Of a DNA stretch of 15,695 nucleotides, positions 5,898-15,695 are shown one piece after another. Source of the stretch: Nitrospirota bacterium (GTDB lineage: Bacteria > Nitrospirota > UBA9217); contig CAVUCU010000006.1 in assembly GCA_963740085.1 (NCBI GenBank), forward strand, positions 1-15,695. The letters run 5' to 3'. Under the pieces are notes generated by a model. It had not been told where the DNA came from and searched no databases. It saw only the letters and a program-made list of their open reading frames with translations. A program made the position numbers and the translations under genes. Positions within the stretch are counted from its first letter, which is position 1. Each line of letters begins with the position of its first letter.

Positions 5898-6054
5898 GAG
5901 CCGGGAGGTTGGAAACTGTTTTCGTGCAATTTGAAGAAGATGTTGGGCTTCATTATGCTCAGCCCAATCGACACGCTGCTCTTAGAATCGTAAATTGCTA
6001 CTTGAAATATTCATTTTATGCTATATTCGAATGGCAAGAAGTGCTTTCCGTACT
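5610..6054 (+). repeat. Direct repeat copy 1 (rluA 3' end plus downstream intergenic DNA)
   Basis: Manual alignment to 13851-14287 gives about 94% identity. Confidence 0.95.
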
Positions 6055-13151: not shown

Positions 13152-13822
13152 ATGGCTAGAAAACCCCGAATTGAATACGAAGGCGCCTTTTATCATGTAA
13201 TCACCAGAGGAAACCAGAAGCAGAAGATATTTAAAGATCCCCTCGATTATCGTAAATTTCTTGAAATACTTATCGGCTACAAACAACGCTATCATTTTCA
13301 TCTCTATGCATACATACTCATGTCCAACCATGTGCACCTTCTGATTGAAACCAGGGCCATTCCGCTCTCCAAAATCCTTCAGGGCGTTAACCAGAGGTAT
13401 ACCATGTACTATAACCGAAGGTACAAGACCGTGGGCACAAAAACGGAGCTGTCAGAATTGCTTGACACCGACCTTGTTCTCAGAATGTTTTCCGAGAACA
13501 AAGGCAGAGCACGAAAACAGTACTCGATGTTCATGAACGACGGAGCAACAATCAAGCAGGAAGACGTCTTGCCCCGGCTAGCAGGAGAGATTGCTCGGCA
13601 GTGCGCCGTTTCGCTTGAGGATCTGCGATCATGGAGAGAACCACAAATATCTTGACTGCTCGACCACTCTTCAGTATTCTAGCGAAGGAATATGGTTATA
13701 CAGGGCGAGAGATCGCGGCGTATTTGCGGAAAGACCCCGCGGCTGTGACTGTGTATCTCCGGAGTAGCAAGGATGTTTGGAAAGAAATAGAAGTTGTGGC
13801 CGCAGCTTTAAAGAAGGAATAA
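13152..13822 (+). pseudogene. Y1 HUH transposase with C-terminal HTH, catalytic region deleted and frameshifted
   Basis: MARKPRIEYEGAFYHVITRGN...YILMSNHVHLL (HUH). The usual HLFQGRY...YIH.NP segment is absent after YKTVG. HTH-like GYTGREIAAYLRKDPAAV lies in a second frame. Confidence 0.85.
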
Positions 13823-13850
13823 GTAACTCAATCTTTAAGTCTGACCCCAT

Positions 13851-14138
13851 ACCGTCATCGAACGCCGCGAAGATTCCTTCCTCTGTGATGTCCGAATTGA
13901 GACAGGCCGTCCACACCAGATCCGCATTCACCTGGCATCCTCGGGACACCCTCTGGTTGGCGATCCTCTGTACGGCGCAGGCGGTTTGCCCCTGCCGGAT
14001 ACACATGCCTTGCCCGGCGACCCGGGCTACCATCTTCATGCCGCAATTCTGAGCTTTCGTCATCCCGGCACCGGGCGCGCGATGGTCATCGAGTGCGAGC
14101 CGCCGTCGTTATTACGAGTTCATTCAGGTACGCGGTGA
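13851..14138 (+). pseudogene. 3' fragment of a second rluA-family gene
   Basis: TVIERREDSFL...HSGTR* aligns codon for codon with 5610-5897; no 5' part. Confidence 0.93.
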
Positions 14139-14287
14139 GAGCCGGGAGGTTGGAGGCTGCTTTCCGCAATTTGAAGAAGATGTTGGCTCACTATGCTCAG
14201 CCCAATCGATACGCTGCTCTTAGAATCGTAAATTGCTTCTTGAAATATTCATTCTATGCTATATTCGAACGGCAAGAAGTACTTCCT
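13851..14287 (+). repeat. Direct repeat copy 2, interrupted by the IS110 element
   Basis: About 94% identical to 5610-6049. Similarity appears to resume at 15694-15695 (GT), where the window ends. Confidence 0.92.
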
Positions 14288-14301
14288 CCTACGATTAGTT
14301 G

Positions 14302-14310
14302 TGCTATATA
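14302..14310 (+). promoter_or_regulatory. -10 half (TGc-TATATA) of a circle-junction promoter; -35 TTGACT at 15688-15693
   Basis: Joining right end, core and left end gives TTGACT-17 nt-TATATA. Confidence 0.65.
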
Positions 14311-14314
14311 GATG

Positions 14315-14462
14315 TCATAGAAGGGCAGGAGAACTTAGTTTACTTCCTGGGTCCTTGAACCCTCAGTACAGTTTGTTCCCTGCCTCCCATAGCCATGATA
14401 GGTTGATTGGGCCAAAGAGCCCTGGTAACGATGGAGGATTGGTCGGGAGGCGTTTCCTGCCT
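14315..14462 (+). ncRNA. Putative IS110 bridge RNA (ends approximate)
   Basis: Two stem-loops with large internal loops, each capped by a GGGY-6nt-RCCC hairpin. Loop segments match the target (TACTTCCT, AGTACAG) and donor (GGTTGATT, GGAG). Confidence 0.8.
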
Positions 14463-14490
14463 GTCTAAATCTTGCATGGAGGAGGGATCA

Positions 14491-15687
14491 ATGGAAAGTT
14501 TGACCGTTGGCGTCGATGTTTCCAAAGAGTCCTTTTCTGCCGCTGGCCTTGACGGCAAAGGGACACGCTGTTTCGCCCAAGATTGTACCATGGACAGTGA
14601 TGGGTTCTCGAAGTTGCTGAAGATGATAATGGCACAGCAACCATATGTTTCTACGGTCATCGTCGGCATGGAGTCCACGGGCTGCTATCACATCAATCTA
14701 TTCTCTTATCTCACGTCTCAGGGCATCCGAGCCGTAGTCATTAACCCGCTGTTGATTTCGAACTTTGCCAAACTTACGCTCCGGAAGACCAAGACCGATA
14801 AGAAAGACGCACTGACGATCGCCCAGTTCCTGCTGGCTCACACGGATAAGATTTCTCAGATGTCCGTCAGCCAGGATATGCAGGATATGCGAGATCTCGC
14901 CCGGGAGAGAGAGTCGCTGAGCCATTTGATTTCCGCGACCAAGACCGAGATCAAGCGGGTCTTGCAGACGACCTTTCCTGAGCTTGAGCGGCTCTGCGGC
15001 GTCTATTCGGGCATCATGCTTGAATTTCTGAAGAAGTTTCCCTCGGCTCGTTTGATTGTGCTTGCCAAACCCCGGGCAATAGCTAAAGCTATGGAGCCAC
15101 GAGGTTCAGGGAGCAGAATATCAACCTTTACGGCGGAGGATATCATCAAACTGGCCAAGAACTCGGTTGGGACGGTCAGTCCAGCCAAAGAGACTATCCT
15201 CCGGGGGAAAATCTCGACACTAATCCATCTGGAGGATCGTCGAGATGAGTTGACGGTCATGCTCACGGACTACTGCAACTCTCTGATGGTCGAAGACCTG
15301 GAGATTGTAACATCCGTGGTAGGCATCGGTAACGGAACCGGTACCACTTTTTTGGCTGAGCTAGGACGAATCGAGAGCTACGAGACGCACAAACATTTGA
15401 TTGCCTACGCAGGGATTGATCCAACAGTGTATCAATCCGGCAAGTACGAGGGAAAGAGCAGAATCTCAAAGAGAGGAAATAGGCACCTTCGACGTGTTCT
15501 TTGGCTCATGACGGTAAATGTGATCCTCAATAACGATAAATTCCGAGCGTATTACCAGAAAAAGAAACAAGCTGGATTGCCTTATAAGAAAGCAGTCATG
15601 GCAACAATGCATAAACTTACTCGAATGCTTTTTGCCATGTTGTCACACAAACAGAGATATCTGGCATCATCGGTGAGCTGCACATAG
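14491..15687 (+). CDS. IS110-family DEDD recombinase/transposase (398 aa)
   Basis: VGVDVSK (D), GMESTG (E), KTDKKDA (D,D), Tnp-domain YAGIDP.VYQSG, SKRGNRHLR. SD GGAGG before ATG 14491; intact ORF. Confidence 0.95.
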   Translation: MESLTVGVDVSKESFSAAGLDGKGTRCFAQDCTMDSDGFSKLLKMIMAQQPYVSTVIVGMESTGCYHINLFSYLTSQGIRAVVINPLLISNFAKLTLRKTKTDKKDALTIAQFLLAHTDKISQMSVSQDMQDMRDLARERESLSHLISATKTEIKRVLQTTFPELERLCGVYSGIMLEFLKKFPSARLIVLAKPRAIAKAMEPRGSGSRISTFTAEDIIKLAKNSVGTVSPAKETILRGKISTLIHLEDRRDELTVMLTDYCNSLMVEDLEIVTSVVGIGNGTGTTFLAELGRIESYETHKHLIAYAGIDPTVYQSGKYEGKSRISKRGNRHLRRVLWLMTVNVILNNDKFRAYYQKKKQAGLPYKKAVMATMHKLTRMLFAMLSHKQRYLASSVSCT

Positions 15688-15695
15688 TTGACTGT

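Follow-up and report, generated by a model that had tools for sequence, protein, structure and literature searches.

The window analysed here is an entire contig of 15,695 bases, the last 1.4 kb of which is an insertion sequence of the IS110 family, with a left end that starts at 14288 and a right end that runs to 15691; the contig stops two bases past the right core. All features described below are read on the forward strand. The recombinase gene of the element (14491..15687) encodes an IS110-family protein of 398 aa that matches the Pfam families DEDD_Tnp_IS110 (PF01548, 2.6e-37) and Transposase_20 (PF02371, 9.5e-25), the two representing the DEDD RuvC-like domain and the serine-bearing Tnp domain by which IS110 recombinases are recognized. 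Among solved structures, the protein resembles the IS621 transposase (8wt6, E 7.6e-14) and ISCro4 (9t56, 1.3e-16). Residues D9, E61, D103, D106, and S326 are among the invariant columns when 24 relatives are aligned and, by analogy, would be the catalytic residues. The stop codon, TAG (15685-15687), coincides with the first three bases of the left donor, and in most relatives the stop lies further upstream.

A protein search returned 2655 relatives at E up to 1e-30 among 8000 candidates scored, and the alignment of 24 relatives was used to retrieve 80 loci from species genomes (38-83% identity), mostly from Nitrospirota, Thermodesulfovibrionales, 'delta proteobacteria', Syntrophales, Fervidobacterium, and Cloacimonadota; individual relatives are referred to by numbers prefixed with L. 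The loci barely differ in the right end (...TAGTTGA-CT) and the left end (CT-CCTAC), and the flanks vary from element to element. The left end begins 203 nt ahead of the start codon and, as in other IS110 elements, is non-coding and carries two modules, each composed of a stem, an internal loop, and a hairpin. The first module (14324..14384) is read as a target-binding loop, and comparison of sequences supports the second (14383-14450) as the donor-binding loop of the element's bridge RNA.

Ends, copies, and insertion site of the element

The genome holds three copies of the element that are 100% identical over 1422-1546 bases. In their alignment, the shared part reads CCTAC...TAGTTGA with CT on each side and the flanks differ, being AAGTACTTC / GTACTCG for the C5 copy and AAAAAGTACTTC / GTAGTCT for the C7 copy; two of the three have a common left flank, a repeat of ~135 bases, and the third lies elsewhere. 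As is typical of IS110 elements, terminal inverted repeats are absent and an identical core dinucleotide is found on both sides. The host sequence just 5' of the element ends in the left target GTACTTC (14279..14285), which marks the point up to which the flank is shared and pairs with the left target guide. It is followed by the left CT core (14286..14287), a dinucleotide that borders the C5 and C7 copies on both sides and is represented by a single dinucleotide in an empty-site contig, and then by CCTAC (14288..14292), which is both the start of the left end and the right donor and is conserved in 72-74 of 76 aligned left ends per column. At the other extremity, the final seven bases of the right end, TAGTTGA (15685..15691), constitute the left donor and are present in 62 of 65 elements. 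The right CT core (15692..15693) is adjoined by GT (15694-15695), the start of the right target, and it is at this point that the C5 and C7 copies continue into GTACTCG and GTAGTCT, respectively.

The empty site was found in a contig from a public DNA run, where 14150-14285 is followed by TT and then by the right flank of the C5 copy; the same run contains the left flank of the C7 copy and a fourth left flank of the element. The empty-site contig differs from the expected sequence by the TT that replaces the CT core and by one more position in the right flank, and it could represent either a paralogous copy or an allele without the preferred core. The flanking repeat of ~135 bases (14150-14285) occurs at least three times in the genome, the other occurrences being C5:76165-76299 and 5909-6046 (99% and 90% identity, respectively). 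No element interrupts the latter, which has ...GTGCTTT-CC-GTACTCC at the corresponding point. Since the element lies at one end of this repeat, it targets a repeated intergenic sequence. A first-pass annotation of the window had predicted TAGTTGA-CT-CCTA as the donor junction, and rightly so: the alignment of three copies that share CT+CCTAC...TAGTTGA+CT between differing flanks, the uninterrupted repeat at 5909-6046, and the empty-site contig together establish the junction TAGTTGA-CT-CCTAC, and with it the boundaries of the element. A circle junction, in which the right end is joined to the left end, was absent from the contigs of four DNA runs, but contigs drop rare forms and this absence therefore says nothing.

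Two further irregularities were noted in the vicinity of these sequences. Beyond 76165, on the minus strand, the C5 copy of the repeat runs into long stretches of A, T, A, and G that look like an assembly or masking artefact, perhaps concealing another copy of the element. In addition, a public-run contig matches the first half of the donor loop (14382-14411), its sequence past 14411 being unrelated, and may derive from a copy that is rearranged or truncated.

Joining of the ends is also predicted to assemble a promoter. A putative extended -10 box, TG-n-TATATA, is read from the sequence at 14302..14310 and falls in conserved columns, with T in 69, A in 72, T in 73, and A in 69 of 76 sequences, and the TG in 71 and 66. 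The predicted -35 box, TTGACT, is composed of the right end and the core and comes to lie 17 nt upstream of the -10 box once the ends are joined; of 69 relatives, 40 have this spacer length and 27 a spacer of 18 nt. A promoter rebuilt across the junction is the known route of RNA expression in IS110 elements, as described in the available portion of the source (PMC11208160), and the left donor would hardly vary because it also forms the -35 box. Many relatives (in the range L014-L060) carry a hairpin of 20-40 bases between the -10 box and the target loop, at the place of the IS621 5' stem-loop; the window element and its closest relatives are without that hairpin (14311-14320).

The possibility that the locus is the bridge RNA gene of a dead element, its loop surviving as a fossil without present function, is improbable. 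No RNA run was found to contain the sequence, and several relatives are clearly decayed, with interrupted reading frames. Against this, the three copies, located at different sites, show 100% identity over 1.4-1.5 kb, a fourth left junction is present in public contigs, the reading frame is intact with all of the family-invariant residues, and the guides, core, and promoter boxes match the consensus of the clade.

Predicted structure of the bridge RNA

Covariation was tested with a structure of 28 pairs on 62 distinct sequences of the region 14322-14452. The upstream alignment leaves out L013, L020, L074, and L079 (<200 nt upstream), alignment A2 leaves out L014 (loop missing), L027 (partial), L076 (aberrant), and duplicates, and alignment A3 leaves out L014, L027, L076, L080, L084, L085, and duplicates. 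Over the 28 pairs, 94.9% of 1722 cells are paired and compensatory change is observed in 22; none of 500 shuffles reaches these values, and sliding the partners by 1-3 columns lowers the paired fraction to 32-59%. The whole molecule folds no better than shuffled sequences (z -0.39), and the donor loop alone reaches a z of -1.99, so that the structure is visible by covariation and not by the energy of a single sequence. Rfam gave no match at E up to 10 in 13800-15695, nor any at the gathering score over the window (4227 models).

The donor loop is closed by two stems. The 5' strand of the outer stem (14385..14388) pairs with 14445-14448 (92.4% paired, 3/4 pairs compensatory), and the stem can be extended to 14383 with 14450, its 6-bp version being 93.1% paired. 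The 5' strand of the inner stem, GCCA (14392..14395), pairs with TGGT at 14440-14443 (91.5% paired, 4/4 compensatory), and the 3' strands of both stems, which together span 14440..14448, derive from the same covariation test. Within the loop stands the hairpin GGGCC-AAA-G-A-GCCC (14409..14422), in which 98-100% of cells are paired and all 5/5 pairs are compensatory. Much of this architecture had been proposed in the first-pass annotation from the window alone, and it holds among the relatives. The closing stem that it built from GCCA/TGGT together with CCC (14386-14388) and GGG (14445-14447) is there and covaries, as is the hairpin that it divided into GGGC (14409-14412), CAAAGA (14413-14418), and GCCC (14419-14422) and likened to GGGT-CCTTGA-ACCC (14349-14362) of the target loop. 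The right loop strand that it described as longer in the donor loop measures 17 nt (14423-14439) versus 12 nt in the target loop (14363-14374). Covariation in homologs, the check that it had set beforehand, is likewise observed, the stems covarying in the 62 RNAs and both guides covarying with the donor ends. The two hairpins, GGGUC-CUU-GAACCC and GGGCC-AAA-GAGCCC, are built alike and contain one partnerless A each; the available portion of the IS621 structural work describes flipped-out A residues at the corresponding hairpin places (PMC11208158).

The target-binding loop is composed of a stem (14324-14334 with 14375-14384), a left target guide (14341-14348), a hairpin (14349-14362), a right target guide (14365-14371), and a handshake guide (14372-14373). 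Its stem and hairpin follow from the stem test, and its left and right guides from their pairing with the flanks of each element. When the target guides are compared with each element's own flanks, 73% of positions pair with the bottom strand on the left and 84% with the top strand on the right, and none of 1000 shuffles is as high. As it is the first loop that pairs with the flanks, the target and donor loops are assigned the right way round.

The base of the target loop has a competitor. GGCAGG (14324-14329) has two possible partners, the local CCUGCC at 14379-14384, with which it forms the target-loop basal stem, and a copy at 14456-14461. The local partner is 94.7% paired, with no compensatory change and no excess over shuffles, and the distant partner is 98.1% paired, with two compensatory pairs and none of 500 shuffles as high; it is also the distant partner that the minimum-energy fold of the single sequence picks. 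The second CCUGCC-type strand extends over 14456..14467 and can pair with 14318-14329. Distant relatives keep the long-range helix in other letters, with 10 base pairs in L080 (-22.1 kcal/mol), L085 (-15.2 kcal/mol), and L061, all three of which also retain the local stem; the helix is weak in L084. Extension of the helix at its distal end favors the cognate strands (-3.45 vs -2.78 kcal/mol, 8/2000 permutations), a weak signal that is confounded by relatedness. Judged from sequence, the long-range helix, which covariation supports better than it does the local stem, could belong to a three-way junction, could arise when a longer transcript folds differently, or could do both. No description of it was found among the IS110 and bridge RNA papers searched. 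A tentative and rather doubtful extension of this idea is that the RNA adopts two mutually exclusive folds, the long-range one closing both loops as a three-way junction with a donor stem of 7 bp, in which case the bridge RNA would not consist of two independent stem-loops and could switch between a guide-competent RNA and a leader of the recombinase mRNA. This would signify that guide formation is coupled to recombinase synthesis.

Donor-binding loop guides and their covariation with the donor

The left donor guide, GGUUGAU, occupies 14401..14407. Its pairing was tallied position by position in 65 elements that have both a donor loop and a right end and that comprise 18 distinct guide-donor combinations; L014, L075, L076, and L078 (spurious right-end match or loop absent) and elements without a right end were left out. 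For L056, the first match was taken as the right end, a later match falling in a fluoride riboswitch. That riboswitch (RF01734, 62.1 bits; L056 2099-2162) lies ~115 bases downstream of the relative's right end, and its conserved ...GATGACTCCTAC... resembles the right-end / core / left-end junction by chance.

Numbering guide positions 1 to 8 from 14400 to 14407, Watson-Crick pairs are found in 64/65 elements at position 3 (14402) and in 65/65 at position 4 (14403), where L008 and L011 have A in both guide and donor, and at positions 5-6 (14404-14405). Two positions alternate between purines opposite T, namely position 2 (14401), which is A in 38 and G in 27 elements, with the exception of L037, where a guide G equals a donor G, and position 7 (14406), which is A in 44 and G in 21. 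At position 8 (14407), 65/65 elements have a U facing the G partner of the core C, so that the wobble at the core C, first noticed in the window, proves to be a conserved feature. Position 1 (14400) is mismatched in 54/65 elements. The base after the guide (14408) is T in 59/65 and G, C, or A in six CT-core elements, and it remains T in three CA-core elements. As this base is independent of the core and variable, the guide is probably shorter than the eight bases (14401-14408) listed in the first-pass annotation, of which 14401-14407 stand and T14408, which ignores the core change and varies in six elements, probably does not. From the sequence comparison, 14408 is probably not a guide base, and 14400 and 14408 probably flank the guide unpaired. 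In IS621, a linker comes after the 8-nt left donor guide, and T14408 corresponds to it, according to the available portion of the source (PMC11208158). No covariation was found that would give T14408 a partner among the looped-out bases, on the analogy of A131-U159 in IS621.

The donor is nearly invariant in the clade, varying at two positions of the left donor and at one each of the core and the left end, and the covariation therefore rests on two positions at the left guide and two more at the right guide. Metagenome contigs were scanned for donor loops with a base other than T at 14403, the donor base being left free in the search expression. The scan yielded 57 matches, 33 of them with a recognisable right end at the expected distance, and in 33/33 of these informative elements the donor base equals the guide base at 14403 (28 A, 4 G, and 1 C); these are 33 readings and not 33 events, since metagenome elements that share a guide type are probably related. 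The other 24 matches comprise 16 contigs that end too early and eight without a right-end motif, six of which have a disrupted recombinase frame; of the remaining two, L135 has a frame of 377 aa whose 3' end is different, and L095 a read-through frame.

The right donor guide was tallied in 55 elements with a left flank, left end, and donor loop, guides and ends being assigned from alignment columns and L014, L059, L076, L078, and L080 (misaligned or decayed left end) and elements with <16 aligned left-end bases being left out. Its proximal part (14432..14436) contains GGAG (14433-14436), which had been put forward as the complement of CTCC (14286-14289) on the top strand and which is Watson-Crick paired in 55/55 elements at all four positions, with two compensatory changes. 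The CA-core elements L009, L010, and L021 have GGUG in place of GGAG, and L030, whose left end starts with T, has GAAG. The adjacent base, U14432, lies opposite the T of CCTAC, and the 55 elements show 39 U.T, 9 G.T, and 7 A-T combinations at this place, and never C; a non-canonical G.T pair is described at the third base after the core in IS621, the same place as 14432, in the available portion of the source (PMC11208158). Further upstream, G14425, T14426, and A14428 belong to the 10 columns that do not vary among the 62 sequences. Given these invariant columns and the analogy with A157-U158 of IS621, GU at 14425..14426 is a putative distal right donor guide opposite the A and C of CCTAC, and the right guide probably continues discontiguously to G14425-U14426 with 14427-14431 looped out. 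In the alignment columns, the right guide upstream of GGAG shows no covariation with the left end beyond CCTAC. In the three CA-core elements, both right guides follow the core (UG) and both left guides keep U, a pattern from which it follows that the second core base is read only via the top strand, and which fits a free base after the left donor guide.

The donor-loop handshake guide, GA (14437..14438), is complementary to TC (14284-14285) of the target. The first of its bases pairs with the final left-target base in 49/55 elements when the real flanks are used and in 67/72 when the target guide serves as a proxy, and it would pair with the cognate donor base in 3/72 only; as in IS110 elements generally, the handshake guide thus fits the non-cognate and not the cognate DNA. 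The concept of a handshake guide has been described for IS621 (PMC11208158, in the portion available). The exceptions are L043, L045, and L047, in which the dinucleotide AU does not fit the target TA. In this subclade, both left guides end in A or C.

The earlier pairing proposal had started from a comparison of GGTTGATT (14401-14408) with AGTTGACT (15686-15693), and its count is accurate: six of eight bases match, and the two differences, G for A and T for C, are wobble-compatible with the bottom strand. Over the 18 guide-donor combinations, differences at positions 2-8 comprise 31 cases of G for A or U for C and one other, and it is this one-directional pattern that separates RNA-DNA pairing from a mere repeat in the DNA. 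A reading of 14401-14408 as a direct repeat of the right-end terminus, serving as a protein-binding site for the recombinase without RNA-DNA pairing, is consequently very improbable. If one protein domain bound a direct repeat, 14403 would likewise be held equal to the donor base, but such a site offers no reason for the wobble bias, and the second guide does not repeat the other end, being its reverse complement. Moreover, both guides lie in loop strands of an RNA fold supported by covariation, and the solved IS621 complex, in the portion of the source available, has RNA-DNA pairing at these very positions (PMC11208158). The wobble-tolerant 8-mer RGTTGRYT occurs three times on both strands of the window versus 3.4 expected, so that the six-of-eight match is by itself unremarkable; what makes it non-random is its placement in the 5' loop strand of a covarying stem-loop and its covariation with the donor in relatives. 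A chance resemblance within a structured 5' leader of the recombinase mRNA, which this count would allow, has a negligible probability in view of the donor covariation in 98 independent readings (65 + 33) and the parallel fit of the right guide and the handshake guide.

Proposed mechanism and relation to known systems

Taken as a whole, the explanation of the locus as a bridge RNA with a donor-binding loop is very probably correct. Excision of the element as a circle would bring together the right end TAGTTGA, the core CT, and the left end CCTAC, and the joined ends would rebuild the promoter TTGACT-17 nt-TATATA, from which the left end would be transcribed. By analogy with the work on IS621, the RNA would then be made and would bind the recombinase, with the chemistry of recombination to follow. 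The target-binding loop would hold AAGTACTTC-CT-GTAC in like manner, GA (14437-14438) would be positioned for pairing with the target strand that enters once strands have been exchanged, and the recombinase would join the circle and the target at the CT core.

This is the correct identification of a system of an already known type, and the known mechanism is unchanged by it; the guides of the clade may already be listed in Supplementary Data 2 of the original description (PMC11208160, available in part). The window represents a natural bridge recombinase system that is annotated in full, with its recombinase, its RNA, and the donor, target, and core. It stems from an uncultivated lineage closest to Nitrospirota and Thermodesulfovibrionales genomes, and ~100 relatives have the same architecture. 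Several natural rules for the donor loop emerge from comparison within the clade: the left donor, nearly fixed in sequence, would serve as the -35 box as well, a U invariably reads the core C, the guide varies only by wobble-compatible transitions, and the base after the donor guide is free. Such rules are useful for judging candidate bridge RNAs and for choosing orthologues for recombination work.

In the same recombinase superfamily, elements of the IS1111 group use a seekRNA, a single RNA with two guide loops, one for the target and one for the donor. The seekRNA is encoded downstream of the recombinase gene, whereas the bridge RNA described here lies upstream of it, in the left end.

The closest parallel is IS621 of Escherichia coli, the following points being those given in the available portions of its two descriptions (Durrant et al. 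2024, PMC11208160; Hiraizumi et al. 2024, PMC11208158). Both elements have a CT core and encode, in the left end and upstream of an IS110-type recombinase, an RNA composed of two pseudo-symmetric modules of stem, loop, and hairpin. The left guides have the sequence of the top strand, to which the right guides are complementary. The left donor guide extends as far as the core C, where a linker takes over, and the right donor guide comes in two separate parts, probably so in the window element, with the third base past the core in a non-canonical pair. A handshake dinucleotide follows each right guide, and a promoter is rebuilt across the joined ends of IS621, as is predicted for the window element. 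The proteins, in contrast, are only distantly similar, the match (E 7.6e-14) covering the C-terminal part only, and further differences lie in the RNA. IS621 has a 5' stem-loop that the window element is without, and the modules of the window element abut without a linker and have two C residues in common. The core C is met by a U.G wobble here in 65/65 elements versus a C-G pair (C130) in IS621, and the right loop strand is longer, with 12 RNA bases (14425 to 14436) versus the nine described for IS621. Unlike IS621, the window element also has the second CCUGCC strand 3' of the donor loop that allows a long-range helix.

ISPpu10 of Pseudomonas putida offers a second comparison, within the part of its description that is available (10.64898/2026.03.19.712850). 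Its junction promoter has the -35 box supplied by the right end and the -10 box by the left, as predicted here, it shows natural wobble or mismatch pairs at the interfaces between guide and DNA, and it inserts into a repeated intergenic sequence. Wobble or mismatch pairs at guide interfaces have thus already been reported for both IS621 and ISPpu10 (PMC11208158; 10.64898/2026.03.19.712850, each in the portion available). The positions concerned differ, ISPpu10 having a wobble at the left target and a G.G mismatch at the right donor, whereas the conserved wobbles of the present clade fall in the left donor guide.
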